A stretch of 44,328 bases of DNA from Tubiluchus corallicola (lineage: Eukaryota > Animalia > Priapulida): positions 1-44,328 of the forward strand of contig JAQGDQ010002429.1 in assembly GCA_030141605.1 (NCBI GenBank), in the 5' to 3' direction. Of this stretch, positions 3,625-20,523 are shown piece after piece. How positions within the stretch are numbered: position 1 is the stretch's first letter; each line of letters begins with the position of its first letter. Below the pieces are notes generated by a model. That model was not told the DNA's origin and did no database searches. It saw only the letters and a program-made list of their open reading frames with translations. A program made the translations under genes and the position numbers.

Positions 3625-4104
3625 TTAGGCGACAATCTTCCATGTACCATCCACCTGGCGGCAGGCGACGCCATAAGCATCCTGCTTTTGACCACCAACC
3701 ACAATGGATTGCTGAAACTCACGGCAATATTTACCCGAGCTTTCCTGCCATGTCTTGGTAGGCACAACTTGACCCGTATGACCTGTATCCGGGTTTTTCC
3801 ATGAATAAGACTGTCCCGTTCTTCCTGTCTCCAAAGCATTGTGCGTTGTTTGTTGCATCATTAGCTTATCCGCATTATCTAAAGACTCACCAACACTAGA
3901 GCCCACCAAGGCGCCTAAAAGAGTCCCTGCCGCAACCGCCGCGATCTGCCCCTTTCCTTTACCAAACTGAGCCCCCGCCAAAGCACCTGCCGCAGCGCCA
4001 AGAACAGTTCCACCTTGCTGTTTAGCTCCCGCATTCCCCGTAGTTGATTGACATCCTCCAGCAACAATTCCAACAACCACTAACATCATAATGCTTAAAC
4101 GCAT
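3625..4104 (-). CDS. 17-kDa surface antigen-like outer membrane lipoprotein (glycine zipper, RT0821/Lpp0805 family)
   Basis: Lipobox-like AGGC, glycine zipper GTVLGAAAGALAGAQFGKGKG, WKNPDTG, and C-terminal CREFQQ...YGVACRQVDGTWKIV. Confidence 0.9.
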   Translation of the reverse strand: MRLSIMMLVVVGIVAGGCQSTTGNAGAKQQGGTVLGAAAGALAGAQFGKGKGQIAAVAAGTLLGALVGSSVGESLDNADKLMMQQTTHNALETGRTGQSYSWKNPDTGHTGQVVPTKTWQESSGKYCREFQQSIVVGGQKQDAYGVACRQVDGTWKIVA

Positions 4105-4316
4105 ATCGCTATTCTCCTAAAATAAAAATTACCAATAAATTATAGCCGCTTATCAAAAAATATAGCTTTAAAAATCTATAAAATCAATGTCTTTTCTTAA
4201 TGATAGAATTATAAAAAAAGAACTCAATTATTTTTAAACTTTCACTTTATACCCTATCTTGATAAAAACAACAACCATACGGTAATAAATATATACGTTT
4301 AACGCTCAAGGCTTAT

Positions 4317-4940
4317 TTAAGCCGTGACAGTATCAGAGTTTTGAAAATCCTCAATTTCTTTCCTCAAAGCGTCATAAGTCTCCACAGTGGACAAATGAGG
4401 ATAATCTCCTTTCACATTGTCCGGAGCCTGAAATAAAATACCCTTTTCCGCAAGAGACAACATGGAAATATCGTTATAGGAATCACCCGACGCAACCACT
4501 TTGAAATTCAATCCCTGAAACGCCGCGACAGCTTTTGTTTTATGATCGTCTAGACGGAAATGACACCTCTGTATGACCCCCTGCTCATCAACAGCAAGAC
4601 GATGGCAAAAAATAACAGGAGAGGAAAGCTGCTGTATCAACGGTGACGCAAGCTCCTCAAACGTATCCGATAAAATAACCACAGGCATCCGTTTTCGCAC
4701 TTCGCCCAAAAATTCAGCGGCGCCCTCTAAAGGGCTCATTTTGCTAATAATTCTTTGAATATCAAAGAGTGTTAAATTATTGTCTTTTAAAGCCGACAAA
4801 CGATGTTTCATCAATAATGTATAATCTGGAACATCCCGCGTTGTCATCAAGAACGCCTCAATACCAGTTTCCTTCGCAACACGCACCCACATCTCCGGAA
4901 TAAGAACACCTTCAAGATCAAGACAGAGTATTTGCATCAT
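4317..4940 (-). CDS. thrH: Bifunctional phosphoserine phosphatase/homoserine phosphotransferase (HAD)
   Basis: CLDLEGVLIPEMW, TTRDVPDY, ILSDTF, GDSYNDISML. Confidence 0.92.
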   Translation of the reverse strand: MMQILCLDLEGVLIPEMWVRVAKETGIEAFLMTTRDVPDYTLLMKHRLSALKDNNLTLFDIQRIISKMSPLEGAAEFLGEVRKRMPVVILSDTFEELASPLIQQLSSPVIFCHRLAVDEQGVIQRCHFRLDDHKTKAVAAFQGLNFKVVASGDSYNDISMLSLAEKGILFQAPDNVKGDYPHLSTVETYDALRKEIEDFQNSDTVTA

Positions 4941-5593
4941 CTTTCCTTTTCAATTTCTGTTTTAATGGTTTTAAAAATAGTGTAAAACATCTCTTCTGTC
5001 AAAATTCCTGTATTTGTATTATAACGAGAACAATGGTAACTGTTGACAAGAGAATAACCACGAGAAAGCCTGTGTAGATGCCCATGTTTAAAAGGAAAGC
5101 GGCTTTTCTTTTCCTTCAAGGCGCTGAGTGTCGCCTCATGAGCGAAATGCCCCAATGTTAAAATAACTCGCAAAGAATCCATTGAACATATTTCCGAAAA
5201 CAGAAACGTCCCGCATTGCTTCCGTTCGCCAGCTGTCGGCCTATTCTGAGGAGGAACACACCGTACCGCATTAACAATACGACATTCCTTCAGAGTCAAA
5301 CTGTCATCAACACGCCGATCATAAGTCCCATCGGTAAATCCAAAATTTTCCAGAGCTTTATATAAAAGATTCCCCGCATAATCCCCCGTAAAAGGACGAC
5401 CGGTGCAATTCGCGCCATGCAGCCCAGGCGCCAGACCAACAATCAAAAGAGACGCAGACAACGGACCAAAAGAAGGAACAGACCCATTAAAATAATCCGG
5501 AAATAAATGCTGATTTTCACCTCTGAAAGTAACAAGGCGAGGGCATAAAGCACACTCTCTCTCAACATAAACCCCTTCTTCAACGCTTTGCAT
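4937..5593 (-). CDS. Uracil-DNA glycosylase, family 5 (UdgB-like, Fe-S)
   Basis: CALCPRL, GLAPGLHGANCTGRPFTGDYAG, RCVPPQNRP, SYHCSRYNTNTG. Confidence 0.92.
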   Translation of the reverse strand: MQSVEEGVYVERECALCPRLVTFRGENQHLFPDYFNGSVPSFGPLSASLLIVGLAPGLHGANCTGRPFTGDYAGNLLYKALENFGFTDGTYDRRVDDSLTLKECRIVNAVRCVPPQNRPTAGERKQCGTFLFSEICSMDSLRVILTLGHFAHEATLSALKEKKSRFPFKHGHLHRLSRGYSLVNSYHCSRYNTNTGILTEEMFYTIFKTIKTEIEKER

Positions 5594-5716
5594 AACTCTT
5601 TAATTTCCCTTCACCATACATAAGAGTAAATTTTAAATATCCTACACGATCCCATAAACGATATCAACCATACAATCAAAAACAGCAGCATGCTAAGCAG
5701 GCCATCAAACTAACTT

Positions 5717-7852
5717 TTAATACTTTATACAATACATTACAGAAACATTCCTAGGACGCGTTTCATGACCATGATGCGTAAAGGATATTTGATAGCTGTT
5801 CTTATAATTCGTACCCAGATAAAAAGCCGCTGTAATAAAATCTGTCTCCTCTCCCGCTCCTGTCTTAAACTGAGAGACATATCCCCCACTCACTCCCGCG
5901 ATAATCTTTCCCGATACCTGCTTTAACGTGTTGACCTGCTCACTCTGGCGGCTACCCAAAGAACGAGACGGATCCACCCCTCGGCCATGATCCCACCCGC
6001 GCATAAACTCCCCTCGAAGATCAGGAAGATTAAAAGTACTACTTCCATCCCCGTTTCCATAGCGCTCGCCAATAATAGAAAAAAGATCCACGTAAATCGC
6101 TCTGGAAACAGCCGAACCATCACACTCAAGCCAGCCAACAGGAACATTGATTTCAGAAAACGCAATAATACTCCCAACTGGAAATCCCCCCCCGGAAGGT
6201 AAATTTTCCAGTATACTCATACAGTTATCAACCTCTTCATGAAGAGTATTGATGTCTTTATAAATATCATCCATATCTTCCTGAATGGTCGCTAACGTCT
6301 GATTGACTCCTCCCACATCCCCCTGAACCACCGCTAAAGCCTGATTAATTCCTCCCACATCCCCTTGAATTGCCGTTAAGGTTTGATGAATACTACTTAA
6401 ATCCTGCTGAATAGTCGTTACATTATTTTGAGTCCCCTGCAAAGACTGATCAAAAGTAACCATATCCTGCTGAACACTCGCCAAATCCCCGTCAAGAACA
6501 TTAATATCCTGCTCAATACCTGCAAAATTCCCATTTAAATCCATAATTTCCTGATGAAGACTCTCTAAAGCCTCCTGAACATTCGCAACTCCCATATTGC
6601 TACTTTGATCATCATACACGATGTCCTTGGCCAACCCCGAGAAATTACCCGTCGCAAACTGTCTAGCCTGCTCCGCCCAATGATAAGCGGAATATCCCGC
6701 CCCTTCAATAAGCTCCCCCTCAGAAGCGCTCGCCCATTTCTTCGACAATTCCTTCCAGGAAAACGCGCCATCTTTATAGCCCAACGCCTCATCCTTATAA
6801 GATTTTGATTCATTCCTATAGAGAAAAGAAGTGTCTTTATAATCAGAAGCCTCTTGACTAAAAGATCGCGCCTTTATCACTTCATCTTCTGCCTGCAAAA
6901 ACGATTCTTTCGCTTTCTCTGACCAATGGAGCGACGAATATCCAACCCCCTCAACAAGACTATCCCAAGGCGCCTGCGACCATTGTCGCGACAACTCCTT
7001 CCAAGAGCGTGACTCCTCTTTATAACTTAAAGCCTTTTCAGTATTTTCGAGAGTATCTTCTGTATAGCCGATAATATCATTTTTATAAACAATAACCTCT
7101 TCTTTATGAGTGATAGTATCTTCTTTATAGGTAAACGCTTCATCTTTATATCCAACAACTTCATTTTTATACTTTAAAACCTCCGCTCTATCGCTGACTA
7201 CATCCTGCTTATATCCTTTGGCATCTTCACTAAAAGAGCGTGCTCGATCCGCTTCATTTTGAGACCGGTTCGCTTCATCCCGCGCTCTGTCCGCTTCGCT
7301 TTGCACCTTTGCAAAAAGCGTCTGCGCCTGTATAAAAATATCTTTGACCTGATCGGACTCTCTTTTAATTTCCTGCCAGATATACTCAAACATATATTCA
7401 CTATTTTCAAATCCATTCCCCAGCGCATTCCATATCAATATTTTCCCCGGCTCACCCACAGGCAAAAGACTCTCACACTGATCCCCCAATAAAGGTCGGT
7501 ATTGCAATGATCGAGATAAAGCCAGCTCATTCTGCTGCAAAACAGCATATATCCTATCTAGCTCATCATTAATAACACGGGAGCGAAAACTGCCGCCTTC
7601 TTGAAAAAAAGACGACCTCTCCGCAGCAACTTTCCGTATAAAAACAATAACAACAGGAGATAATAGACTACCCGGAGCCTCGTCAAAAACAACATTAACG
7701 CCATTTTTCTCCAAAAAAACACTGTATCCCGTCTCAATTTTCTTATCATCAATCCATATATCAACTTCTGATATATCAAAAATACGAAATGGACAGAAAA
7801 AATCTGTCGCCTCTCCCACAGCTCTATAACTAATCTGCAACTTCGACATCAC
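5717..7852 (-). CDS. Phage tail fibre: T7 gp17-like N-terminal anchor, long coiled coil, C-terminal tail-collar domain
   Basis: N-terminal FFCPFRIFDISEVDIWID...FQEGGSFRSRVINDELDR; C-terminal PVGSIIAF...VPVGWLECDGSAVSRAIYVDLFSIIGERYGNGDGSSTFNLPDLRGEFMRGWD...ETRPRNVSVMYCIKY. Confidence 0.9.
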   Translation of the reverse strand: MMSKLQISYRAVGEATDFFCPFRIFDISEVDIWIDDKKIETGYSVFLEKNGVNVVFDEAPGSLLSPVVIVFIRKVAAERSSFFQEGGSFRSRVINDELDRIYAVLQQNELALSRSLQYRPLLGDQCESLLPVGEPGKILIWNALGNGFENSEYMFEYIWQEIKRESDQVKDIFIQAQTLFAKVQSEADRARDEANRSQNEADRARSFSEDAKGYKQDVVSDRAEVLKYKNEVVGYKDEAFTYKEDTITHKEEVIVYKNDIIGYTEDTLENTEKALSYKEESRSWKELSRQWSQAPWDSLVEGVGYSSLHWSEKAKESFLQAEDEVIKARSFSQEASDYKDTSFLYRNESKSYKDEALGYKDGAFSWKELSKKWASASEGELIEGAGYSAYHWAEQARQFATGNFSGLAKDIVYDDQSSNMGVANVQEALESLHQEIMDLNGNFAGIEQDINVLDGDLASVQQDMVTFDQSLQGTQNNVTTIQQDLSSIHQTLTAIQGDVGGINQALAVVQGDVGGVNQTLATIQEDMDDIYKDINTLHEEVDNCMSILENLPSGGGFPVGSIIAFSEINVPVGWLECDGSAVSRAIYVDLFSIIGERYGNGDGSSTFNLPDLRGEFMRGWDHGRGVDPSRSLGSRQSEQVNTLKQVSGKIIAGVSGGYVSQFKTGAGEETDFITAAFYLGTNYKNSYQISFTHHGHETRPRNVSVMYCIKY
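6290..6390. repeat. 42-bp (14-aa) tandem coding repeats in the tail fibre
   Basis: CCTCCCACATCCCC recurs at a 42-bp spacing; protein IHQTLTAIQGDVGG-INQALAVVQGDVGG-VNQTLATIQEDMDD. Confidence 0.75.
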
Positions 7853-7876
7853 GCTTCCTCCCTAAAAAATACCCAC

Positions 7877-8266
7877 TTAAAAAAGAAAGTCTGACGTTAC
7901 AGAATAACCCTCTTTCAGCAAATTCCCCATTGATCTATCCCGATAGTATTTCGCTCTCCTGTCATAATAGTCAGCCGAGCTTTCTCCTTTGGCGCGAACT
8001 TCTAAAGCCGCCTCTTCATCACGCTTTTTCTTCTCCTCCATAACATCTAATACCGAACCGGAAATCTCCATATCCGACCCGCTGTAGGAAACTCTTTGAG
8101 AAGCCTGCTCTCTCCGCGCCTTTTTACGAAATGACAGCTCTTTCTGCCTGTTCTCCTGGCGAATTCTTTCCGCCTCTCTCTTCGCTGTTTTCTTCTGCTC
8201 CTTGCTTTGAGAATATCCCAAAACCGAGCTCGCAACTTTAATAATAGGTTTAATAATCCCACACAT
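7877..8266 (-). CDS. Small virion/internal (ejection-type) protein, putative
   Basis: Position after the nozzle gene; charged helical protein with QRVSYSGSDMEISGSVLDVM, resembling the 'QRA..AASG...SGS.LDV' motif of small podovirus internal proteins. Confidence 0.55.
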   Translation of the reverse strand: MCGIIKPIIKVASSVLGYSQSKEQKKTAKREAERIRQENRQKELSFRKKARREQASQRVSYSGSDMEISGSVLDVMEEKKKRDEEAALEVRAKGESSADYYDRRAKYYRDRSMGNLLKEGYSVTSDFLF

Positions 8267-8305
8267 ATTTCTTACCCTCTTAAATACCGTTTATAAAATA
8301 CCGCC

Positions 8306-10291
8306 TTAATTTGAAAAAGAGATATACGGAACAATCGCCGTCATCGTCAGAGGCAGCGGTTGATCCTGCAAAATCTGTACGCTCTGTTGGCGCCTGTGAA
8401 CACCCTCCATGGATATTTCACGATCACCAGAAAATAAAACCGGCGCGCCATCCATAGCCAACGATAAATAACGCGTCGGCAATTGCTGGCAATCTTCCGA
8501 TATACCCCCTACTTTTCCACCAACCGTAGCGAAAAAACGAACATTGATCTTATAAAGACGCCTCATGCTGCCAAGACGATTGTCGTTAAAACTATTGGGA
8601 TCAATAATCATGCTCTCATATAAAGAGTCATACTGAAACCCTATATAAACACACGAAGCTTCCGTCTCCAAAAAAACACGCCCATTGTCCACAACCTCAG
8701 GTTTGTGACAACATCCGTCCGCTAAAATACTCACCTCTTCTCCCTCAAGATGCTCCAGCCCATCAATAAAATTCGTCTTCTCTCCCTCGTAGACAATACC
8801 GCTGTCAACAAAAAAAGCGCCTTGAAAATCACTCTCTCCAGAAGGAATATATTGCGGCGTTAGAAATTCAATATACCTCTTGATCCTATCGCCAACCTTC
8901 CGACGAACAACAAGCCATAACACTTCCTGATCCTGATAGCGAGAAACAGCGATATCCTCTATGAAACTTTGCTCCCCCCCTATATCATGCCGATGCCAGG
9001 AAATAATAGAACTGTCCCGAAAAAGAGTCGCCCCAAGAAGCCGCCCGTCACACCCTTTCGCCCAAAGTGTATACCATGGATTTTGCTGCCAGATAATTTT
9101 GTCAATTTTATTATGCAATAAATGACGCGATAAAATAGAAATATCCGGCGTTTTCCAAGCGTCATTCTCAAAACTCCAGACCATCTCATGAACACTTCTT
9201 CCGCTACTATGAATAAAAACCATAAGATTATCCGTCTGAGCAGGAATCGACGCCGCTGACGATAAAGATGTCTCCCGTAGAACATTGATATTAAACGGAG
9301 TCAAACTTGCCCCTAAATCTGTCGGAACAATACGAAACCCACCATTATTCGCGCCCGCGAAAAGCTCTCTTCCCGCAAAAAGCCACTGAATATTTGTATC
9401 CCCCTCTCCTAAAACAGTCACTGTAATCGCTTTGTCATCTTCTATCTGCCCATGAGCAGTCGGAGAAAAATTGTCAATATCCCTGTTTGAGGAAAACCAA
9501 ATCGTATCCGGATAATCCCTCACACCCGCCGCGACAATCCTGTTTTCAAAGATAATTCCACACGATGGCCAACCGGTCTTCTCACTCCAGGCGCCAAGAC
9601 GCCACTGGTTCGTCAAAAGCGATGCGGCAAAGCCTTTCTTAGTATCACACATAACTTCCTTATAGTTGAGAAACTCGGTAATAACACCCCATCCCCAATT
9701 TTCATCATGCTCTAACCGTATGAGCCGGCCAACATCATCGCTTCGAAAATATTCCGCTGTACATCTGATCTTAACATGCCCAGACAGCGCGGTGACATGC
9801 ATTCTTTCTTCTGTCGTATTCACATCCAGCCATGGACCATCCTGCATTTTAAAAACACTTAAAAACCAGCCTTCCTCATTTAAAACAAGCTGGTGAGGAC
9901 ACACATCCGGATGCCACAAAAATAATGTCGACTTATACTGACACCATTTAAGATCACGAACCATACCTTCTGACCAAGGCGCAGAGGATTCACACAAGAC
10001 AGATTTCTTATCATCATCCGCCCTGATAACACGATAGTAACAATCCCCAAACTCAATCATAAAAGCACCATACCGACGAACCGCGAACGGAATTAAGCAG
10101 GCCCTTTTATTGTCTTTTGTCTCAAGGACAAACCGTGTCCCAGGACGACGGGTCACAGGGCCCTGAGGCATCGGAAGCATATTCTTCAACACTTTACACG
10201 CATGAGCATAACGAGGAAGATCAACACGACCATAAAGCCATGGGGACCATTCTCCTGCGTTCGCTGTCGTAATAAGAGGTAAATAACGCAT
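8306..10291 (-). CDS. Tail tubular protein B / nozzle (T7 gp12-like)
   Basis: N-terminal NAGEWSPWLYGRVDL...NMLPMPQGPVTRRPGTRF, SWHRHDIGG, GLEHLEGEEVSILADG and C-terminal QDQPLPLTM. Confidence 0.85.
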   Translation of the reverse strand: MRYLPLITTANAGEWSPWLYGRVDLPRYAHACKVLKNMLPMPQGPVTRRPGTRFVLETKDNKRACLIPFAVRRYGAFMIEFGDCYYRVIRADDDKKSVLCESSAPWSEGMVRDLKWCQYKSTLFLWHPDVCPHQLVLNEEGWFLSVFKMQDGPWLDVNTTEERMHVTALSGHVKIRCTAEYFRSDDVGRLIRLEHDENWGWGVITEFLNYKEVMCDTKKGFAASLLTNQWRLGAWSEKTGWPSCGIIFENRIVAAGVRDYPDTIWFSSNRDIDNFSPTAHGQIEDDKAITVTVLGEGDTNIQWLFAGRELFAGANNGGFRIVPTDLGASLTPFNINVLRETSLSSAASIPAQTDNLMVFIHSSGRSVHEMVWSFENDAWKTPDISILSRHLLHNKIDKIIWQQNPWYTLWAKGCDGRLLGATLFRDSSIISWHRHDIGGEQSFIEDIAVSRYQDQEVLWLVVRRKVGDRIKRYIEFLTPQYIPSGESDFQGAFFVDSGIVYEGEKTNFIDGLEHLEGEEVSILADGCCHKPEVVDNGRVFLETEASCVYIGFQYDSLYESMIIDPNSFNDNRLGSMRRLYKINVRFFATVGGKVGGISEDCQQLPTRYLSLAMDGAPVLFSGDREISMEGVHRRQQSVQILQDQPLPLTMTAIVPYISFSN

Positions 10292-10304
10292 GATCCCCCC
10301 CTCT

Positions 10305-10862
10305 TTAAATCATTCTGGATTCAATCCAACCGCTGTGCTCTATCGATCCGGCGGTCCCCTCCTGAGCGTCTGCCGATCGCGCCCTTGCGTACTCAATTTC
10401 AAAACGTCGGTATAAATCCTCCCCAAGCGACTGGTTGTCCGTTAAAACAGGCGCTAACTCAGCCGCCATTTTCGCCGCGATAACACGACGTAAACGCGCG
10501 TCCATCTCGCTGGCGCTAATACGGGAAATATACGTAATACGAGCAAAAGAAGCATCACTAAGCAACTGCCTTCCCTCGCACCGCCACGGCTCCCCTTCTT
10601 CAAACTGCCATACCCGTAAACAGGAGTCCGGAAGCTGAAATTGATACTGAAAACCCCACTCGGGCGCTGACGATAAAGGCGATAAAAATTTACGCCGAAT
10701 AGCACAGTTCCAAGGGTAATCCTGTATGACCTCATCTCGAATCTCCGGCCAGAGACTAGCGCAAATCCCCGACAAAACCGTCCCCTCATCAAACGAGGTG
10801 ATATTCTCCGATTGAACCAGCCATAATGCCCTATTACAAATTTCTATCTCCTTTGAAGCCAT
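10305..10862 (-). CDS. Tail tubular protein A / head-tail adaptor (T7 gp11-like)
   Basis: EIEICNRALWLV...ITSFDE, YPWNCA, FQYQFQLPDSCLRV, ARSADAQEG; typical size and position. Confidence 0.85.
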   Translation of the reverse strand: MASKEIEICNRALWLVQSENITSFDEGTVLSGICASLWPEIRDEVIQDYPWNCAIRRKFLSPLSSAPEWGFQYQFQLPDSCLRVWQFEEGEPWRCEGRQLLSDASFARITYISRISASEMDARLRRVIAAKMAAELAPVLTDNQSLGEDLYRRFEIEYARARSADAQEGTAGSIEHSGWIESRMI

Positions 10863-10896
10863 ACCTTTTCCTCCTTGCTCACCCGCTATAGTCCCT

Positions 10897-11358
10897 CTAA
10901 TCCATCACATAAGAAACATAACCGTATAAAATATTCCCGCTATTAACCGCTCCATTGAAAATATAAGATGATACCGTCACACCTTTCCTCGTCTTCAATA
11001 ACGTCGCGGGATGAAATATTTTCTCCCCTGATGAGGCAATATTGATATTAGACGCTATCGCAGAGTAATCTTCCAAAACCTCCTCTCCATCAATATTCAC
11101 AAAAGGCATATAGCCAATATTCATCTTCTTGCTGCCACCCCAGCTGTTGTAATAACAATAGAGCGATAAAATCCGTAAACATCCCGCCGGCAGCTTTATA
11201 AGCCTGACAAGAGTGATCGTGTCACTATGATTTTCTTCCGGGCGAAACTCAAAAAACGCAACCCTGATACGCCCATGTAAATCTGTTGTCGCATTGTGAA
11301 TAATCGGAACACTCTCCATATCCGCAATCTGTTTGGACTCTAAAATTTTTATGCTCAT
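10897..11358 (-). CDS. Putative capsid decoration/minor structural protein
   Basis: Beta-rich 153-aa ORF immediately after the major capsid gene. Start moved to ATG 11358, which follows an AGGGGG RBS (the ORF track starts at 11406). Confidence 0.55.
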   Translation of the reverse strand: MSIKILESKQIADMESVPIIHNATTDLHGRIRVAFFEFRPEENHSDTITLVRLIKLPAGCLRILSLYCYYNSWGGSKKMNIGYMPFVNIDGEEVLEDYSAIASNINIASSGEKIFHPATLLKTRKGVTVSSYIFNGAVNSGNILYGYVSYVMD

Positions 11359-11414
11359 TTTTCCCCCTGTCTTATATGTTTCAAAGCATCTTCCATACAG
11401 ATGCATCCCGCCTT

Positions 11415-12311
11415 TTAAATCGTCTCATCACAGAGAATCTCAACAACTTTCCTCTCCTCCATCCTTGTCGCTCCACACTCCAAGGAAGCATAGACCTGTA
11501 CCGCATTGCGCTTGTCTTTTCGATACGAGATATCCGTCTTAATATTCCCCGCACACGCCAACACAATTCCCGACTTGGACCAGCATAATACACTCCTGAC
11601 TTTATCCTTGGTAACCCCCAGTAAATGAGAACTGACACGAATAAACTTAAATCCCAAAAATGTATCAATTTTCCCGTCCACAAGAGCCTGAACAGTGTTA
11701 TAATCCATACTGGTAACCTCTGTCGTCCGTAGCAAGTTGCTGATTTGCCGCGCTGTAACAGCGCAATATTGCGCCTCATCATCATCTACATCCGCGTCAT
11801 CAAGCATCTCACGCGCAATCCTAAGCTTGTCAATCGTTAAGCCGCTCGCCTGCGCGCTTCCCGATTCCGACCAGTCAACAGAAATCCGCTGAGAATCCGG
11901 AAAAGGCACCGCCGTATTCCCCTTGCGACCCGACCATGCTGTCGATGTCGCCGCGATAATAATACGCTCGTCCTTCTTACGCCCTAAAGCATAAGACGCG
12001 TTTTGAGCATAAGCCGACGTCGGATCAACCAACATGCTCAGCTGATCCTGCCGATCAATAAGATCCCCCCAATCCGCAGATACCAAAGTAACAGCCCGCC
12101 TGTCATGACGAGTCTCCACAAGAGGCGTGTCCGCATGACGCGTCGTAACATCAATCGCTTCCGTAGGACCAATACGATCATAAAAATAACGCTCTACACC
12201 TTGAATCTCATTGCGAACACAAGGCGCTAACTTCGACCCTCTCTGCTGTAAATTCAGCTCCACAGCATGATGATAACCATCCGCATGAAACATCGTAATT
12301 GATTCAGACAT
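11415..12311 (-). CDS. Major capsid protein (BPP-1 Bbp17/T7-like family)
   Basis: LQQRGSKL, RHADTP, DWGDLIDRQD...LVDPTSAY, ALGRKKDERII, EVTSMDYN...LVDGKIDTFLGFKF, GATRMEERKVV. Confidence 0.9.
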   Translation of the reverse strand: MSESITMFHADGYHHAVELNLQQRGSKLAPCVRNEIQGVERYFYDRIGPTEAIDVTTRHADTPLVETRHDRRAVTLVSADWGDLIDRQDQLSMLVDPTSAYAQNASYALGRKKDERIIIAATSTAWSGRKGNTAVPFPDSQRISVDWSESGSAQASGLTIDKLRIAREMLDDADVDDDEAQYCAVTARQISNLLRTTEVTSMDYNTVQALVDGKIDTFLGFKFIRVSSHLLGVTKDKVRSVLCWSKSGIVLACAGNIKTDISYRKDKRNAVQVYASLECGATRMEERKVVEILCDETI

Positions 12312-12326
12312 TTTTCCCCCTATTCT

Positions 12327-13034
12327 TTACTTATTCCGTGTAATTGCTTGCGTTAAATTATTGATCTTCTTCATCGCGCTTTTATGAGAAGGATGTCCCT
12401 TATCCATAAGTGCTGACATAAAATCACGATCCTGCGATAACGCCATCCTCTTTTCATGCGCCCGCTGAGGTGAAAGCATCGCCTCTGAATCCTGATGGCC
12501 CGCAAGACTGTCTTCCGTCATGGCATCCCCGATAGACGCGAGCGCGTCCATCACTTTCATACCTCCCACAATATCTTCTAAAATGGCAACAGATTCCGGA
12601 TCCATACCAAAATATCGCGCGGCCCTCCTAGCGCTCTCAAGCTTTACGCTAAAATCCGCACCCCACTGTTGCCGCATACGATCAGAAAACGCCATATGAT
12701 CCATATACAGCTCTTCACGAGACTGTTTCCATTTGCTAAAAATCGTCTCTATAAAAGCATTATGAATTGCCTCCGCCTGCTTTCGCGTCAGACTCTGATC
12801 ATAAGCGCATTGGCGAAACCAGTCGGTCATATCATGATCATAAATCTCCTCCATATGCTTTGGGCACGTAAACGCATAAGAATCCAAGCTTTCCGGCGCT
12901 TCTACACGCTCCTTAAGACTGAGAAAAGCACGAATAACATCATTCATATTTTCCCACCCTTCCCGTTGCGCTATCGCGTCTAAATCGACCCCTATATCAA
13001 CAGATTCGCTCTTGTTGTTCATATCATTCTTCAT
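12327..13034 (-). CDS. Capsid scaffolding/assembly protein, putative
   Basis: Lies between portal and capsid genes; helical, APESLDSY, QQWGADF and C-terminal DKGHPSHKSAM motif. Likely start is ATG 13034 after GAGGA. Confidence 0.7.
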   Translation of the reverse strand: MKNDMNNKSESVDIGVDLDAIAQREGWENMNDVIRAFLSLKERVEAPESLDSYAFTCPKHMEEIYDHDMTDWFRQCAYDQSLTRKQAEAIHNAFIETIFSKWKQSREELYMDHMAFSDRMRQQWGADFSVKLESARRAARYFGMDPESVAILEDIVGGMKVMDALASIGDAMTEDSLAGHQDSEAMLSPQRAHEKRMALSQDRDFMSALMDKGHPSHKSAMKKINNLTQAITRNK

Positions 13035-13314
13035 TTCTATTTTCCTCAATTACCTTTAAGATATCCAAAGAGTGTGTCTCTAACATTTCAAGAATATGCA
13101 GAAAGACATCACGAGCCCCTTCATTAAACGCCGTCTGATAAGGATCATTCGGAACAAAACTTGTCTGCCCCATGCGACAATAAACCGCAAGGTCTGCCAA
13201 GACATCTTTTGAGGCCTAACTTCCATCCCCTAACGTCGACTGCCACGCGAATAAAATATCCCTCGCTTTCTTCTTTCCCCATAGCCTAACAAGCCACTCT
13301 ACGCTGTTTTTCAT
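13024..13314 (-). pseudogene. Bbp19-like small phage protein interrupted by an in-frame TAG (codon 33, 13216-13218)
   Basis: Hand translation: MKNSVEWLVRLWGKKKARDILFAWQSTLGDGS*ASKDVLADLAVYCRMGQTSFVPNDPYQTAFNEGARDVFLHILEMLETHSLDILKVIEENRNEE. It fills the portal-scaffold gap and is absent from the ORF track. Confidence 0.75.
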
Positions 13315-13352
13315 AAACCGTTCTTCTCTTTCCCATGGTGGGCTTTTCAACC

Positions 13353-14909
13353 CTATCCCTCTATACCCTCTTGCTTTTCACGTACCATACCTTTGTCATA
13401 ATACGCCTCTCTCATCTGACTGACCTCTTGAAGAGGGCGGACAATCCTCGCCGGAAGACCATAGGCGTGCGCTAAAACACGCACGGCTTCATCCGTGTCA
13501 AAATTGTCCCATACCTCCGGGTAATAAGCCGCCATCGATTCAATCGCCTCAAAAGACCTGAGAACAGACGTTCCCTCAGTCGCTTTCTGCGCTCGCGCCA
13601 ACGGGCTGACATACCCAATATCAATATATTCATTTCCTTTGAGAATATCCGGCAAAGGCGGCAATAAACCACTGCGCTTCATAATGTTAAACTGCCGCTT
13701 GATTAAAGGATCAAGAAACTCCGATTGAATCCGACCTAAATGCGGACCCATCAAGCGAAGCTTTTCCTCCTGACGCATCAGCGCTTCCGTCGCTGTTTTC
13801 AGCGGCTGGCCAATCATCATCATCAAAGACCAACAGAACGCTTCACGAATAGCCTCCCGCCTCTGCTCCTCAAGCTCAAGTCCTGGACCTATACTGTTTC
13901 CTGAATGAAGAGGTTCATAATTTTTTCTACCCGTAACAGGATCAATCCCGCCATAAATAATCCCCCCCGGTACAGTTCGAATTCCTCGGACAGACGCTTC
14001 ATCAGGCGCTAAAAGAGGAGGATCCGCCTGCTTCTGAGCCGCGACAATCGTTGTCTTGCTCATGGCGTTCACCATGCGAATATCAGGAAGCGCAGACATA
14101 GCAGGACTCTCTCCATAAGGGCTATGAGTCGTCGTGGACCAACGGGGAACCTGCCAGGGAAATTCATAATATCCCCCCTCTGAAACAATCTGCCCACTTT
14201 CTTTCTCCACATAAAAAGATAGCCATGGCATACACTGCAATACAGCGCTCTTCCTTAAAGCGCCATGCATACTGTCGCGTGGAAAAATAGCGTGAGTAAA
14301 CGTAAATTTCTTATCCGGAGATTTCTCAAGCGCCTTTCTCATCTTAGGAGGAAGAGCCGACTCCCCCCACATAGCGACCGCGTTGGAAACCGTCAGATCA
14401 AATTGCCGGAATAAAGTATCAACCTGCTCTGCCGCGTTCTCAACAATACAACATTCAAAAACAGGACGACAGGAATATAAAATCTTATCATCCTTCTGTA
14501 GTTCACCAACATAAAAAAACGCCGTCCCAAAACAGACTAAATCCATATAAAGATCCTGAACACGCGCGTAAAAACGTTGCCCTCCCGATAAAAATGTACG
14601 CCGCATTCTTCTGGTCACTTCATCAAGCCATAAACGCACATCCCTCCTGTCATCAATATCCGCGTCATAATGATGAAGTGTAAACCATTCATTGGCAGCA
14701 TTGGTCATCATCCCCCAAAGTCCCGAAGAAAGATAACTCGCGGCTATTGAGGCCGTACTATCATAAATTTGCCTCTGATGACCAGATGCCTTCATATGCA
14801 TCGGGCGCACAAAAGAGTCTATTTCATGCCATTGCCGCTCTTTAAAATTTCTCTCTGTTAGCAAATCCTCATGACGACATAAAATTTCCAATGCTCTACT
14901 ATCCTGCAT
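13353..14909 (-). CDS. Portal protein (head-to-tail connector, T7 gp8/Bbp21-like)
   Basis: IYDSTA, DLVCFGTA, EGGYYEFP, YGESPAMSALPDIR, KTATE, LGRIQSEFLDPLIKR, YVSPLARAQK. Confidence 0.92.
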   Translation of the reverse strand: MQDSRALEILCRHEDLLTERNFKERQWHEIDSFVRPMHMKASGHQRQIYDSTASIAASYLSSGLWGMMTNAANEWFTLHHYDADIDDRRDVRLWLDEVTRRMRRTFLSGGQRFYARVQDLYMDLVCFGTAFFYVGELQKDDKILYSCRPVFECCIVENAAEQVDTLFRQFDLTVSNAVAMWGESALPPKMRKALEKSPDKKFTFTHAIFPRDSMHGALRKSAVLQCMPWLSFYVEKESGQIVSEGGYYEFPWQVPRWSTTTHSPYGESPAMSALPDIRMVNAMSKTTIVAAQKQADPPLLAPDEASVRGIRTVPGGIIYGGIDPVTGRKNYEPLHSGNSIGPGLELEEQRREAIREAFCWSLMMMIGQPLKTATEALMRQEEKLRLMGPHLGRIQSEFLDPLIKRQFNIMKRSGLLPPLPDILKGNEYIDIGYVSPLARAQKATEGTSVLRSFEAIESMAAYYPEVWDNFDTDEAVRVLAHAYGLPARIVRPLQEVSQMREAYYDKGMVREKQEGIEG

Positions 14910-15026
14910 TTTTATTGCTTCCCCTTAATTCAATACCACTTGAATTGAAATGTGAATAAAATAAAACCCGCCTCTTTTACTTAACAGAGTAAAACACCTA
15001 TATCCCTCTCATTATGAAACAAATAT

Positions 15027-15052
15027 ATTCTATAAATATTCACTTTCTGTTC
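15027..15052. promoter_or_regulatory. Tandem LexA-like boxes (ATTC-N7-ATTC-N7-GTTC) upstream of the portal gene
   Basis: ATTCtataaatATTCactttctGTTC; the alphaproteobacterial SOS box is GTTC-N7-GTTC. Confidence 0.4.
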
Positions 15053-15085
15053 ATATTTACAGCCATTAAACATTCTTTGGTTTTT

Positions 15086-15571
15086 CTACTCACTTTTTTT
15101 ATTCAATAAGCTGTATAAAATAAAATCCTCCCGCAAACGGCCAAAGGCAGGCAAATAAGCTTCCTTATAAAATCCAAGACACTCAAGCCATCTGTGTGTT
15201 CTCTCATAACAGGCAAGGCTATAGCAGATCATTCTATGCATTCCTTTTTTTTCAAGCGATTTAAGAAATCTGTTCCTGATATATAGTGTCGCGGCAATAG
15301 AAACATCCGGCCAACGATCTGTCGCAAACATCGCCCCCCCATATACACCTGGCCATAACTGCGGAGCCGCGACAATCGCAACAGGAATAACCCTATGCCC
15401 CTCCTTGATCGCGATCTCTACGCCATTATAGTTTTCCTCCGCAATATCATGGGCGATCGTCTCAATCTCATCACCATACCGCAGCGCCATAATCTCCTGA
15501 TGATCACAAGACCGTATACGCGAAACGACAAAAGCGATATTTTCATAACAAAGCTTTTGAAAAATAACCAC
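15086..15571 (-). CDS. GNAT-fold phage protein (T7 gp13-like/acetyltransferase-like)
   Basis: IRSCDHQEI, WPGVYGGAMFATDRW, THRWLECLGFYKEAYLPAFGRLREDF. Confidence 0.65.
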   Translation of the reverse strand: MVIFQKLCYENIAFVVSRIRSCDHQEIMALRYGDEIETIAHDIAEENYNGVEIAIKEGHRVIPVAIVAAPQLWPGVYGGAMFATDRWPDVSIAATLYIRNRFLKSLEKKGMHRMICYSLACYERTHRWLECLGFYKEAYLPAFGRLREDFILYSLLNKKSE

Positions 15572-15621
15572 ATTTCCTCCTTATCCCGCAACTTCCCGCT
15601 GATAGATATCAACAATTCCTC

Positions 15622-17195
15622 TCACCAAGAAAAAGGATCATAATCCTCCCTCTCATTCCCTATAGGACGTTGACGCTCACGGTAAAGGCTTTTATTCCTA
15701 GAAATCAGCCAGGCAAACGTCAACGCGGCAGCGTCACCCGCATCTGTTGAAAATCCCAGCCGTTTGCGGATATTTTCTTTCGACTCCAATAAAAGCTGCT
15801 CGCTGGAATTAAACCGAAACATCGGCGCGCAAAAATGACGATGCAAAATATCATCATCAGGAATATCCGCGCCTCCGGGATCCATAATCCATTCTCTTAA
15901 ACGTCCCCACATCTCCGCTCTTTTGTTCGCATATTGCCGTGTATCATCCGCTTTAGAACCAAAGTTCACCAAGGAAATAATCGACTCAAACCCCAGCTCC
16001 ACAAGACGATCATAAATCGCCGCGCCACCACCACCAGAATCAATACACGCCAGATAAGCCCCTGTTTTCTCAATAATATTCGCGATCCAACCCGCTAACT
16101 CCATACTGTTATCACTGTCGCGATGCTCGTTCACATGGCTTCCCAAACGACGACCGCAACGATCAATAATCCACGATAAATCACCTCCCCCTCTTGCGAC
16201 ATCAATACCTAGTATAATTCTATGATGAGGGCTGCTTTCCAACTGATTACGACGCGCAGCCAAAACATACTCGGGCTTGATAAACGTATAGTGAGAAGCG
16301 GAAGTCTGAAACGCCTCCACCGCTGTCGCCGGAAACTCCTGCTTGAATTTCCAGCAAGGTCCCATTTCCGGATTCTCACCAACCCCCTTGGCTAGCACTT
16401 CATTTCGGCGAAAAGCCCAAAAAAGCTGCTCATCATTAAGAGAATAGCTTTTCCCATACTCACGCCACGCTGTCGGAAAACTCCACCCCTTAGGCACAGA
16501 GCGACAATAACCCTCATTCCAAAACCAAGGAAGAAAAATAAGCTCAAACTCCCCTTTTCCAGACTCCGCCGCTACACACATTTCATAAAATACTCCGCCA
16601 ATACCATTGGCCGTGCTTTCTAAAATAATTTCTGTGTCATCCTGATCAGCAACAGCTGTTACAGCGCTAGCAACATTACTATCTGCTCGAGGCCAGAAAG
16701 AAATTTCCGACCCATGAAAAAACTGAATTGTATCAGAGCGACCAATATCTCTCCCTCCTGCCGTTGCAGCATGATAGCTGCTATCAAGACGATTAAAATA
16801 CATTTCACTCACATTACTCCGACCCATATAAGGACAAACAAATGTAGGGCAATATTTCTGAAATCGGCGCGCCATCTCCAGCAAATTCATGGTTGCCTCC
16901 TTGCGATGAGCCACCAAAAGACAACGAACTCCACGACGATGTGTTATATAATGATAACTGCGCGCAACAACATAGGTTGATATTCCTAATTGACGCGCCT
17001 TTAAAATCAATATCCGAGCCCGACCTGTTTTTTTTTCTGTGTGCAAATCTTCTGATGAAGTATAAATTGTGTTCGATTTAATTTTAAAGAACGAATACCT
17101 TGTGTTGTTGTCCTGATCTTAAGGCACTTTTGGGCATAATATGAAAAATCGTCTCGTAACCTCTCACGGATACGACGTTCATATAAATCCATCAT
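15622..17195 (-). pseudogene. terL: Terminase large subunit, split by a frameshift at an A9 tract (17028-17036)
   Basis: N-terminal piece (DDFSYYAQKCLKIRT...LKLNRTQ, 17007-17201) and main piece (ILKARQLGIST Walker A, FHGSEISFW Walker B, ESTANG motif III, GIDVARGGGD nuclease) join as QKKKTGRARIL if one A is added. Confidence 0.85.
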
Positions 17196-17565
17196 CAACA
17201 CCAGAATAAAAACCGTTAAGATGTTCCTCTATTCTGTTTTCCAAAGAGCGACGCTGATCTTCTTCTAGATGTGGAAATAGATCATTATCACGTATTAAAG
17301 GGGATAAAGATTCCGGGCTAATCGCAAAAGCACGCTCCGCTAAAGCCATATCACAACCCAACAAAAACTCCCGCCGATATTTATTGGCGCTCTCACAGTC
17401 AATTTCCTCCATTACCTCGTCAGCCGCTATCCTTCCTAAAGCAAGATGATAAACCAATTGAGCAATATCCTCTGTCTCCGCCCTTGCCCAGACTTTTTCA
17501 CAACAGCTTAAAAATTGCTCAAGAGATAAGTCACTATTAATAAATTCAAATCCCTTCTCTGACAT
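17179..17565 (-). CDS. Hypothetical protein in the phage module (128 aa, acidic)
   Basis: GAGGA RBS; stop overlaps the terL start region; no motif recognised. Confidence 0.65.
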   Translation of the reverse strand: MSEKGFEFINSDLSLEQFLSCCEKVWARAETEDIAQLVYHLALGRIAADEVMEEIDCESANKYRREFLLGCDMALAERAFAISPESLSPLIRDNDLFPHLEEDQRRSLENRIEEHLNGFYSGVDDGFI

Positions 17566-17608
17566 ATTTTTTCCTCACCTATTTTTCATTAAAGCAAATA
17601 ATAGTGCA

Positions 17609-17947
17609 TTAATCTATAAATTCTTCAAATTCAGCAAGTGCGTCTTCATGCTGAAAGCTCGCTTTATTATTATCTATCTGACTAAATTGCATGTATAAGC
17701 GGGTAATAAGGACAAGAGTCCTGATATTTTTATTAAAAAGATCATTTTTTATTTCATCAGAAAGATCCGTGCGACCTTCAGTCTGGATTGTCTTTAATTC
17801 TGTTAAGGCCTGCAAAAACTCTAGTCGCTCCTTAATGGAAATATTCATCCATTTTTTAAACGTTTTCTTTTCTACGAATTTTTTTCCGGTAATTTTTCGA
17901 ACAGAGGCATAAATATCTTCATATTTTTCTATACTATATCCATTCAT
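17609..17947 (-). CDS. Hypothetical protein, possible terminase small subunit
   Basis: First gene of the module, upstream of terL; C-terminal HEDALAEF resembles tails seen on small terminase subunits. Confidence 0.45.
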   Translation of the reverse strand: MNGYSIEKYEDIYASVRKITGKKFVEKKTFKKWMNISIKERLEFLQALTELKTIQTEGRTDLSDEIKNDLFNKNIRTLVLITRLYMQFSQIDNNKASFQHEDALAEFEEFID

Positions 17948-17989
17948 TTTTCTTTTTTAAAAGCATATACTATAAATAATTAAGACTAT

Positions 17990-18018
17990 ATTTTATTCCA
18001 AAAAAGCGTAAATGTCAA
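17990..18018 (-). promoter_or_regulatory. Near-consensus sigma70 promoter facing the phage module
   Basis: Minus strand TTGACA (18018-18013), 17 bp, TAAAAT (17995-17990), about 40 bp upstream of ATG 17947. Confidence 0.65.
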
Positions 18019-18024
18019 TACAAT

Positions 18025-18039
18025 ATTCTATTTATGTTC
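18025..18039. promoter_or_regulatory. LexA-like box (ATTC-N7-GTTC) next to the -35 element
   Basis: ATTCtatttatGTTC, one mismatch from GTTC-N7-GTTC, 6 bp upstream of the -35. Confidence 0.4.
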
Positions 18040-18195
18040 TATATATATTTTAAATTGCGACTTAAGGTAGAATAAGAATTATAGGCCCACAAATCAATAC
18101 TAAATGTATTGAATCGGGTCGCAAAAAAGAGCCGAAAATTTACCCATTTCCTATCACAAATAGACCCGATTACTCTATGGTAAAAACAATAAAAC

Positions 18196-19116
18196 TTAAT
18201 GACACAAAAGTAAGGGCATCAAAGCACGCTCCAAAAGATACCGCGTAACGCCTCCTAAAACCATCTCACGAAAACGACTATGCCCAAAAGCTCCACAAAC
18301 CAATAAATCAGCATCCCTTTCCTCACAGGCCGCAACCAGACCCGCACCAACAGATGTCACATCTTGCTTCTGTATAATACAGTTTTCCGCTTTAATATTA
18401 TGCCAGTATAACCATTTCTGCAAATCAGACGCAACTTCAGAAGGGGTTTTATCACTTTTAAATGTTATGATAATAACATTGCTCGCTTTCTTTAAAAAAG
18501 GAAGCGCAGCAATAACAGATTGACACGCCTCACTACTGCCGTTCCAGGAAATCGCAACTGTTTTTCCCTCAAAACCCGTATATCCATGAGGAACAACAAA
18601 AACAGGACGATGCGCCTCAAATAAAGCGATATTTAACGCTGTAGAAGCCCAAGGATCAAAAGAATTACCCGGATGAGAGGTAACAATAATATCCGCTGTC
18701 CGACAATGCATCGCAAAAGAATCAACATGATCATTACGAATACGAGGCGTCCAAGAGGCACTCGGAAGTGTTTTTGGATCCTCTGAAGAAATCACATCAA
18801 TATCATACTCCTTACAAACATTCAAAAAGATATCCCGAAATTCCTTACGCTGCTGCTCGTCTATATTCTTCGACGCCTTAAAATACTCTTCGATAATCTC
18901 ACTGTCACTATAATCCGACAAAGGATAATAAATCGGCTGTAACCCAGGAACAGCCGTCGTCAACAACTGGTTATGCAACTTCGGTGAAGTAGACATTGAA
19001 GCTCGAAAAACATCAAAATGCGCCTCAAATATCTTTGCCAAAACAGAGGCAACCTTTAATGTATCTAACGCCGTATCGCGCATTTCCAGAGGAACCAATA
19101 TCCTTTTGATTGCCAT
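18196..19116 (-). CDS. Universal stress protein (tandem Usp)
   Basis: MAIKRILVPL, HRPVFVVP, ISWNGSSEA, DLLVCGAFGHSRFREMVLGGVTRYLL. Confidence 0.92.
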   Translation of the reverse strand: MAIKRILVPLEMRDTALDTLKVASVLAKIFEAHFDVFRASMSTSPKLHNQLLTTAVPGLQPIYYPLSDYSDSEIIEEYFKASKNIDEQQRKEFRDIFLNVCKEYDIDVISSEDPKTLPSASWTPRIRNDHVDSFAMHCRTADIIVTSHPGNSFDPWASTALNIALFEAHRPVFVVPHGYTGFEGKTVAISWNGSSEACQSVIAALPFLKKASNVIIITFKSDKTPSEVASDLQKWLYWHNIKAENCIIQKQDVTSVGAGLVAACEERDADLLVCGAFGHSRFREMVLGGVTRYLLERALMPLLLCH

Positions 19117-19427
19117 TAGACTTCTCCTTTTCTCATTAAAGACAAAAAAAATACATGAAACTCACTCTTCTGTTTTCAATATTATACTCTTTATTGTGAT
19201 ATGTTTATCAAATTTTTTCAAGCTCAAAAACAGGAGCTCTCTACCATAAGATGAATAGAGACAAAAATATACCCAGACCTTAACACTCAAAACCCTCTAT
19301 TCCAAAGCCACATTGTAATAGCCTAAACAAAAATCTAAGAAATTTTGAAAAAATTATATTATACAATACAATAGAGCAAACAAATCCTTTAAACTCTATA
19401 TAATAAAAAGAAAACATGGAGGCAAAT

Positions 19428-20324
19428 ATGGAAATTGTTGAAATCCGTAATAACGATTTTAAACTCTTAAAAAAACGCGGATTTTTAATTATTCACGATA
19501 AAAATCAAAATAAGGAAATAGGAAATGTCCCGCTGGATTCAGTGTCAGCCCTTATTCTAACAGCAGACAACGCCACACTCACCAAACAAATTATGGTTTC
19601 CTTAGCAAAACAAGGCGCACCCATCGTTGTCTGCGACGAAACCTATACACCCTCTTCAATCATGCTTCCTTATGGCTCTCATTATAAACATACAGAACGC
19701 GTCAAAAAACAAATTAACGCCACACCTGAACTTCTTGGAAAACTCTGGAAGAAAATCATCACCTATAAAATCTACAATCAAGCGCAAACATTAGAATATT
19801 TTTATCCCAACCACCCTACAGTCAAAACACTGAAATATTACTCCCAGAGAGTGAGATGGAACGATGGATACCGCTACGAAGCCTATACAGCACGCGAATA
19901 TTTCAAAGCTCTCTTTCCCAGAAAATTCAAACGAGATCGAGACGCCAGCGATATTAATATCTTTTTAAATTACGGCTATACAATTTTACGCTCGACAATC
20001 GCTCGCTATCTTGTCGCCTCAGGATTAAATCCCGCACTCGGTATTCACCACAGCAATACCCTCAACCCCTATGTTCTCGTGGATGATATGATAGAACCTT
20101 ACCGCCCTTTGGTTGACTTTTACGCTCTCAATCTCTGGAAAACAAAAGAACACACTCTGACACCAACCACAAAAAGAAAATTGATCTCTATCCTGAGTCA
20201 TAAAATTCGCTACAACAAAAAAGAAACATCCATAGAACAGGAAATCAGTGCCTATATTAACTCTTTGGCGCAAAGCTATCTCAAGGGAAAAGTCGTTTTA
20301 AAACATGGAGAATTCATATGGTAG
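19428..20324 (+). CDS. cas1: CRISPR-associated endonuclease Cas1 (type II-C)
   Basis: YEAYTAREYF, NIFLNYGYTILRS, GIHHSN, LVDDMIEPYRPLVD with the catalytic E/H/acidic residues present. ATG 19428 follows GGAGG; an alternative start is 19416. Confidence 0.93.
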   Translation: MEIVEIRNNDFKLLKKRGFLIIHDKNQNKEIGNVPLDSVSALILTADNATLTKQIMVSLAKQGAPIVVCDETYTPSSIMLPYGSHYKHTERVKKQINATPELLGKLWKKIITYKIYNQAQTLEYFYPNHPTVKTLKYYSQRVRWNDGYRYEAYTAREYFKALFPRKFKRDRDASDINIFLNYGYTILRSTIARYLVASGLNPALGIHHSNTLNPYVLVDDMIEPYRPLVDFYALNLWKTKEHTLTPTTKRKLISILSHKIRYNKKETSIEQEISAYINSLAQSYLKGKVVLKHGEFIW

Positions 20325-20428
20325 CCTTATCTAAAAGTAAGGCTAAGGGGGGAGAGAAATCTCCCCCAACCATTTTACGATATAAAATCTTATTATATGT
20401 GTTACTGGTCCAACACATTTCTGATACT
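20322..20428 (-). ncRNA. tracrRNA
   Basis: Anti-repeat 20401-20427 (25/27 match to the repeat), 3-nt bulge, lower stem 20392-20397, then nexus-like ATTTTA/TAAAAT and hairpins GGGGGAGA/TCTCCCCC and TAGCCTTA/TAAGGCTA. Confidence 0.88.
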
Positions 20429-20523
20429 TACTATTTGTACTATATTTTTATAGCATATGCAACAAAAAAACGTATATAATTGATACGATCAAACCAAAAA
20501 GTTTAAAAAAAGGGAGCCTACTT

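Follow-up and report, generated by a model that had tools for sequence, protein, structure and literature searches.

The 44,328-nucleotide contig JAQGDQ010002429.1 of the Tubiluchus corallicola assembly GCA_030141605.1, analyzed at its full length and hereafter called the window, contains a module of approximately 12 kb of head-tail-packaging genes that runs on the minus strand from position 17947 down to 5717, flanked by usp (18196-19116; PF00582) and udg (4937-5593; PF03167). Our comparative analysis revealed a single-copy module at a conserved locus, with trees congruent with those of its hosts, purifying selection, and no viral members, a combination that lends good support to domestication at the family level rather than to a recent prophage. 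We consider it probable that the module, known so far from its genes alone, is an independently domesticated, podovirus-derived gene transfer agent (GTA), which would pack host DNA and deliver it to kin cells. The first-pass annotation of this sequence had described a co-oriented head-tail module between udg and usp and read it as a candidate short-tailed, GTA-like or otherwise domesticated particle, with a decaying prophage as a real alternative; open reading frame (ORF) positions and profile matches confirmed the module, and its domestication was upheld at the family level, whereas its function as a GTA stays a probable interpretation. Few independent GTA origins have been established, and new ones are difficult to distinguish from dead prophages. 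The locus is a candidate for another such origin, from a podovirus, and the module has been kept even in symbiont genomes of 1.1-1.5 Mb, where unused genes are normally lost.

Distribution, inheritance, and selection of the module

The MutL protein of the window was at most 51% identical to anything found, its named matches lying among the Rhodospirillales, and the host of the window is a deep lineage separate from Hepatincola. The best relatives of the capsid (56-69% identity) included symbionts of Candidatus Hepatincolaceae, and capsids from phage collections reached at most 52%; the large terminase, TerL, was 35-44% identical to its relatives, with best phage matches of at most 39%. Among the 14 genome loci retrieved, 10 carried the same stripped gene set. 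The capsid gave one match each in 11 of the 12 genomes of the order that includes G004, which corresponds to the Hepatincolaceae (PMC11724238); the only miss was G007, a bin of 0.9 Mb that likewise gave no match to Mrp or TerL. Both genomes of the sister order also carried the module: that of G001 is complete, and that of G014 breaks off at a contig end following terS-terL-gp13. The core module genes were open in G001, G003, G005, G008, and G010, with genomes of 1.1-2.1 Mb.

The position of the module was conserved at a site other than that seen in the window. Of the 12 relatives whose upstream DNA could be read, 11 have it next to an Mrp antiporter operon; Mrp was recognized from a Pfam match in L001, from BLAST or a family search in G006, G010, and G014, and from matching ORF order and size in seven more. 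In G005 and the window, the module is not beside Mrp. The udg/usp site is therefore derived, and the conserved synteny at udg/usp that had been proposed as a check did not hold.

Neither of two signs that had been named as telling against domestication, absence from close relatives and nesting among free phages, was observed. A 152-row capsid tree joined the window to the G001 group and the Hepatincolaceae in one clade (support 100), and none of the 80 IMG/VR capsids among the matches listed fell inside the 47-row module clade (support 100). A five-gene module tree grouped the window, G001/G014, and the Hepatincolaceae (support 100), and a host tree built from MutL, RplI, RpsR, and RpsF united the same taxa by one branch (Shimodaira-Hasegawa-like approximate likelihood ratio test, 98). 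The inner order G009,(G003,(G011,(G004,G012))) was identical in the module and host trees. Across the 13 common taxa, 6 of 10 splits were shared, a number reached by none of 20,000 label shuffles, and the Mantel correlation was 0.879; the four host splits not shared are unsupported forks. The congruence with the host tree that had been suggested as a test was thereby recovered. A stripped module in G136, with the gp13-like gene likewise relocated, was sister to the module clade (support 100), and domestication may therefore be older still.

Pairwise ratios of nonsynonymous to synonymous substitution (dN/dS; NG86) were 0.06-0.26 in the capsid, portal, TerL, adaptor, and nozzle genes, compared with 0.09-0.22 in mutL, and dS was similar for module genes and mutL, near saturation. 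The relaxed selection that this comparison had been meant to expose was not seen. The module is fully endogenous and vertically inherited with the host chromosome, one of the properties by which GTAs are defined, and its genes are homologous to the kind of tailed-phage genes from which GTA particles are built; the definition further names particles that carry mostly random host DNA, cannot hold the complete set of their own genes, and pass DNA to recipient cells (PMC9662315).

Several local variants of the module and its capsid were also recorded. An extra ORF of 175-231 aa, without a Pfam or PHROG match, occupies the scaffold-capsid gap in the termite-gut branch only (L005 9209-9904, L009 9171-9698, L011 6807-7334). 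Insertions between terL and portal comprise a methyltransferase gene in G003 (L003 5953-6774) and approximately 2 kb in G010 (L016 13940-16089). In G154, a capsid gene (L046 9826-10689) stands without any matched structural neighbor, and a termite-metagenome contig (L242 4096-4899) holds a shortened capsid gene of the module clade among phage replication and integrase-like genes, possibly a fragment acquired by a mobile element.

Recoding of TGA in the termite-gut branch

In the termite-gut branch (G004, G011, and G012), six module genes, covering 7,491 codons, carried 19 in-frame stop codons, every one of them TGA rather than TAA or TAG. Twelve of the 15 TGA columns corresponded to Trp in another genome, a capsid TGA site was common to all three genomes, and the Bbp19-like gene had a shared TGA at a Trp site. 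The same three genomes encode a second Trp-like tRNA of 74 bases with anticodon TCA, beside a tRNA-Leu (G004:C1:52667, G012:C35:6405, and G011:C78; L361, L363, and L366), which was present in neither of two comparison genomes; ARAGORN labels it as a selenocysteine tRNA from its anticodon, and it has no long variable arm. Because the TGA codons stand mostly at Trp sites and a UCA tRNA is present, the module appears to be still translated in this branch.

Use of genetic code 4 throughout these hosts was rejected, given an intact release factor 2 (RF2), host genes that end in TGA, and the scarcity of internal TGA. Only six internal-TGA candidates were detected in 221 non-module ORFs, three of them phage tail genes and three lying within approximately 30 codons of a doubtful start; internal TGA outside the module was found in P2-like tail genes, including a P2-like tail cluster in G012. 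In each of the five genomes searched, prfB (L318-L322) reads as a single uninterrupted frame of 371-410 codons, and nothing inside the match points to the usual programmed frameshifting. The use of TGA in this branch is similar to the recoding of late genes in phages and prophages (bioRxiv 10.1101/2021.08.26.457843), and the use of TGA for Trp, limited almost wholly to phage-derived genes, extends phage stop-codon recoding to permanent host loci.

Ejection, packaging, and a proposed mechanism

The only ejection-type gene kept after the nozzle is the gp14-like gene. The gp14-like gene of the phages DU_RP_II and ct3Et533 precedes genes for three large virion proteins, and all 29 IMG/VR loci with enough flank, among the matches listed, had an ORF of at least 500 aa after the nozzle, the post-nozzle ORFs of 10 of these matching large proteins of L014. 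None of the 11 module loci had a phage ORF of at least 500 aa in this position, the fiber excepted, and in all 11 the gp14-like gene was followed by the fiber or host genes. These counts omit L011 and L015 (short flank; nozzle below threshold) as well as 51 of the 80 IMG/VR loci, in which the flank was too short or no nozzle matched.

Among the packaging genes, TerL conserves its ATPase motifs and three nuclease aspartates. The candidate small terminase (TerS) was 35% identical to an ORF of G001 (E 6e-8), and its helical core aligned with a small ORF upstream of terL in eight relatives (78-173 aa), six of which measure 78-93 aa or 122 aa (five Hepatincolaceae fall in the 78-93 aa range); the ORF before terL encoded a short helical protein in all carriers examined. 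The predicted structure of the TerS candidate, a single-sequence fold, was of low confidence (predicted local distance difference test, pLDDT, 58.9). Small terminases of GTAs have no DNA-binding domain (PMC6854486, PMC11841831). With regard to uptake, ComEC exceeded the cut-off in 14 of 15 genomes and DprA was found in five of five, with secretin in none of the five; uptake of the Bartonella-type agent BaGTA needs comEC, dprA, and comM, and the DNA enters via ComEC (PMC5496983). During T7 ejection, the outer membrane is crossed by gp14 and the periplasm by gp15, with gp16 extending as far as the cytoplasm (PMC11784390).

These features can be arranged into a working mechanism. A host sigma-70-type promoter would drive the operon in a minority of cells; scaffold, capsid, and portal would form the head, into which TerL and the shortened TerS would pack chromosomal DNA without a specific pac site. 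Adaptor, nozzle, and fiber would constitute a stub tail that binds kin cells, and the gp14-like protein would lengthen the channel no farther than the outer membrane, either up to it or across it, leaving the DNA in the periplasm. By analogy with BaGTA, this DNA might then be taken in by host ComEC, DprA, and RecA, and lysis would depend on genes located elsewhere.

Evidence against GTA function and alternative explanations

A number of observations weigh against the interpretation of the module as a GTA. In the window itself, a frameshift in a run of nine A (17028-17036) cuts the first ~55 codons of terL off from the ATPase and nuclease domains, and the Bbp19-like gene is interrupted by an in-frame TAG (13216-13218). 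Erosion was also evident in relatives: G002 has two frameshifts, G009 has no fiber, and G006 has neither gp14-like gene nor fiber. The gp14-like protein of the Hepatincolaceae is without the N-terminal hydrophobic segment of its phage relatives, which makes an outer-membrane channel doubtful in this family, and the free phage HTVC010P has just 268- and 370-aa annotated ORFs directly after its gp14-like gene. Full ejection may be supplied in G001, because a contig end of this genome (G001:C8; L128 8348-14360) carries a gp16-like gene together with an amidase and an Rz-like spanin. No lysis gene set was common to all carriers, GH108 and holin-like genes each occurring in 6 of 15 genomes. The TerS candidate gave no profile match, the TerS candidates of G001 and G014 have a Cys/His-rich N-terminus that could bind DNA, and ComEC and DprA discriminate weakly because they are common (10 of 14 control genomes). 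Moreover, the deepest host grouping could be partly an artifact, since the hosts are long-branched and AT-rich.

The two lesions of the window copy, reported in the first-pass annotation, are both present in the sequence. The TAG was found in both sequencing runs of the same sample, and the A run in terL was two bases shorter in the second run, a length that is uninformative because that run shortens many homopolymers; both DNA runs derive from one sample, one of them being possibly the source itself, and provide no independent check of the lesions. Two other nine-base runs in coding sequences of the window are in frame. Taken together, the two lesions probably reduce particle output strongly or abolish it, and the copy of this strain may be inactivated. 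Recent damage is the account of these lesions toward which we lean, if only slightly; slippage or read-through giving a low output in this strain is possible but doubtful, and an assembly error in the A run is decidedly unlikely. A more elaborate proposal, which we regard as speculative and rather unlikely, is a GTA family in which ejection was cut to its outer-membrane piece, DNA is handed to the competence channel, and output is gated at translation in few cells, by competition between a UGA-reading tRNA and RF2 in the termite-gut branch and by A-run slippage and stop read-through in this strain.

The lysis and ejection genes expected elsewhere in the genome were sought in relatives, where the G001 gp16-like locus and patchy GH108 and holin-like genes came to light, and no set shared by all carriers did. 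GH108 and holin-like candidates sit mostly in prophage-like cassettes. Three of these (L313, L316, and L317, from G007, G005, and G010) combine repressor-like, Mor-like, and GH108 endolysin genes beside a DeoR-like gene, as labeled by sequence inspection, with a holin-like gene in G007 and G005 and an endolysin that looks degenerate in G005 and G010. L128, the gp16-like locus of G001, also carries a DUF3800-like gene. A search with phrog_992 matched nothing, controls included, and is uninformative.

Among the alternatives, a function other than gene exchange survives best, although we consider it not likely: the module would be domesticated and functional, acting against related podoviruses by diverting or poisoning their assembly or forming adhesive or decoy particles in the animal gut. 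The inheritance and selection data also fit this role, as do the incomplete ejection machinery, the truncated gp14-like protein of the Hepatincolaceae, and a fiber that is lost or highly variable among relatives, and repurposing of RcGTA-like genes in symbionts has been raised (George 2022; PMC9254644). However, TerL retains its ATPase and nuclease residues and is under selection, which speaks for DNA packaging, and ComEC and DprA are kept without the secretin.

Less probable is a fixed, helper-dependent transducing unit that makes heads and stub tails and relies for ejection and lysis proteins on another locus or on a related prophage resident in the cell. G001, whose only capsid gene coexists with an intact gp16-like gene, an amidase, and a spanin at a separate place, would suit such an arrangement, as would G003, where a holin-like ORF and a decayed lysozyme lie directly after the fiber, and the GTA of Faecalibacterium prausnitzii (FpGTA) uses a second operon (PMC12946183). 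Nevertheless, a search of the four chromosome-level Hepatincolaceae assemblies with phrog_684 gave no gp16-like match, 15 other genomes queried with the G001 protein yielded a single match, weak and partial (E 3.6e-5), and the genes of G001 may be either a second locus or a piece of a separate prophage.

Finally, a defective prophage relic without current function, in slow decay, is very improbable: the lesions here, the frameshifts of G002, the gene losses of G006 and G009, and the judgment of Dittmer et al. 2023 that the Hepatincola region is unable to make phage (PMC9992710) agree with it, but dN/dS remains at the level of mutL with synonymous sites near saturation, core genes are open in the five relatives listed above, and the stops of the termite lineage are TGA only, mostly at Trp sites and with a matching UCA tRNA, so that decay is largely refuted for the family and plausible for the copy of this strain alone.

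Features of the module and its surroundings

The coordinates of the module are collected in Table 1. The near-consensus sigma-70 promoter noted at the first gene scored 11/12 and was the single best among 63 consensus matches in the 16.6 kb from 4000 to 20600. The 128-aa ORF between the TerS candidate and terL had no match among 1.84 billion representatives and was missing from the modules of relatives. The gp13-like gene is relocated upstream of portal, as it is in G001, G014, and G136. The predicted capsid structure (pLDDT 89.5) matched podophage capsids best in Foldseek, the top hit being the LME-1 capsid 9eg4. The decoration candidate was patchy in its occurrence among relatives, and profile searches with it gave no match; the gp14-like protein exceeded the PF24072 cut-off in G001.

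Table 1. Positions of the head-tail module and its candidate promoter in the window
Feature	Position	Strand	Evidence and remarks
Sigma-70-like promoter candidate, TTGACA-17-TAAAAT	17990..18018	minus	43 bp upstream of first gene; consensus match only
TerS candidate, 112 aa, all-helical	17609..17947	minus	candidate by position and helical core
128-aa ORF between TerS candidate and terL	17179..17565	minus	no relative found
Large terminase, TerL	15622..17195	minus	phrog_2, E 9e-27; ATPase and nuclease domains
gp13-like / GNAT-type internal virion protein	15086..15571	minus	phrog_308, E 8e-4
Portal, T7/BPP-1-type head-tail connector, 518 aa	13353..14909	minus	PF12236, E 8.5e-121
Bbp19-like small gene	13024..13314	minus	phrog_4437/528; conserved in relatives; TAG-interrupted here
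Scaffold	12327..13049	minus	phrog_3742, phrog_458
Major capsid protein, 298 aa, HK97 fold	11415..12311	minus	PF19821, E 2.8e-84
Probable decoration protein, 169 aa	10897..11406	minus	role from position; BLAST to post-capsid ORF of relatives and phages
Tail adaptor, tubular protein A, gp11-like	10305..10862	minus	phrog_394, E 1e-46
Tail nozzle, tubular protein B, gp12-like	8306..10291	minus	phrog_376, E 4e-148
gp14-like small ejection protein	7877..8266	minus	phrog_418; PF24072, E 3e-4, below cut-off; alignment
Tail fiber, 711 aa, coiled-coil repeats	5717..7852	minus	C-terminal Collar domain PF07484, E 2e-21

In agreement with the first-pass annotation, no integrase, repressor, replication, or lysis gene matched a profile among the 42 window ORFs scanned, no tRNA was found in the window, and no long direct-repeat pair of the att type flanked the module among the 20 repeat families shown. 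No NCBIfam model matched the module. Codon usage as a measure of host match (module versus minus-strand host genes, r 0.946) was discarded as strand-driven because plus- and minus-strand host genes correlated at r 0.025.

Adjoining usp, a type II CRISPR-Cas system occupies positions 19416-27760 and comprises cas1, an anti-repeat (20401-20427), cas9 (1196 aa), cas2, and an array of 49 repeats and 48 spacers, none of which matches the window. CRISPR self-targeting was rejected, as all 48 spacers were at least 8 mismatches from the rest of the window.

Comparison with known systems

The closest described counterpart is 'prophage region 2' of Candidatus Hepatincola porcellionum, an orthologous region that in all three strains encodes terminase, portal, capsid, and tubular protein A and has no att sites (PMC9992710). 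Dittmer et al. 2023 read it as an old defective prophage, and the available part of their account contains no order-wide survey, selection test, or GTA interpretation. Unlike that region, the window copy lies between udg and usp in a deep, separate host lineage. The main text of Castelli 2025 does not use the terms GTA and capsid, and our literature search, outside of which most subscription papers fell, found no description of this module family as a GTA.

The podoviruses DU_RP_II, ct3Et533, and HTVC010P share homologous portal, Bbp19-like, scaffold, capsid, adaptor, nozzle, gp13-like, gp14-like, and fiber genes in nearly the same order, which we take to be BPP-1-like. Their genomes measure 35-42 kb, with replication genes in DU_RP_II and ct3Et533 and, in DU_RP_II, also lysis genes and an integrase. 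In an active temperate podovirus of the DU_RP_II kind, the structural genes would be accompanied by an integrase, att sites, a repressor, and genes for replication and lysis, a combination that the window lacks. Capsid-forming phage satellites (cf-PICI) are mobile and bring their own integrase and replication genes; the locus has neither and is a fixed single copy.

RcGTA resembles a siphovirus in having an HK97-type portal, a protease, a tail tube, and a tape measure. In contrast, the module has a T7-type portal, adaptor, and nozzle, RcGTA-type genes were not found in the window, and PF05065 was detected in none of five carrier genomes, placing it outside the Rhodogtaviriformidae. What it shares with RcGTA-type elements is a structural-only chromosomal cluster, vertical inheritance, and a shortened TerS (PMC9662315).

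BaGTA (Bartogtaviriformidae) is likewise a cluster of similar size, ~14 kb, with terminase, portal, capsid, and a collar-type fiber (PMC9662315, PMC3610622), and its particles are reported to be tailless or short-tailed, with competence-dependent uptake (PMC9662315, PMC3610622, PMC5496983) of the kind that we propose for the module. Judged by gene length, the B. australis portal and probable capsid measure 620 and 372 aa, as opposed to 518 and 298 aa in the module. In a proxy test, the terminase of phage NYA-2014a, which is nested in the BaGTA group, gave no significant BLAST match to the TerL of the window, and no run-off replication gene, a feature of BaGTA, was found among the 42 window ORFs. 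By gene sizes and this proxy test, the module is not of the BaGTA type.

FpGTA, by its description, is a 10.5-kb operon with a TerS without a DNA-binding domain, TerL, portal, scaffold, and capsid; it is probably podovirus-like, with lysis in a second operon (PMC12946183). Its host is Gram-positive and it is backed by particle and DNA evidence, whereas we know our module from genes only. Because of FpGTA, short-tailed GTA-like particles are not without precedent (PMC12946183).

Among 151 sampled alphaproteobacterial genomes, 32 gave weak capsid matches (E 1e-25 to 1e-9) that pointed to a second stand-alone podovirus cluster, of which our literature search found no description and nine loci were inspected. 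This cluster (L137-L149, e.g., L143 2374-19491) has a 272-282-aa capsid, a T7-type TerL downstream, and an S24-type regulator; it is widespread in Azospirillum and relatives, Rhodospirillales, and other Alphaproteobacteria, and in G118 it is reduced to capsid and decoration genes. The cluster resembles the module in its stand-alone portal, capsid, adaptor, nozzle, gp14-like, and fiber genes and in having no large ejection genes. It differs in that its TerL is of the NF033889 T7 type, without a significant match to that of the window (E 1.7), and its capsid is 29% identical; placement of the two in one clade was rejected (approximately unbiased test, p 0.022), and the cluster was not found in the 15 genomes of the module's group that were searched. 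Two unrelated podovirus domestications in Alphaproteobacteria, both without large ejection proteins, suggest a general rule in which DNA would be delivered to the periplasm and its import completed by ComEC, and the loss of large ejection proteins is suggested as a genomic signature for finding GTAs.

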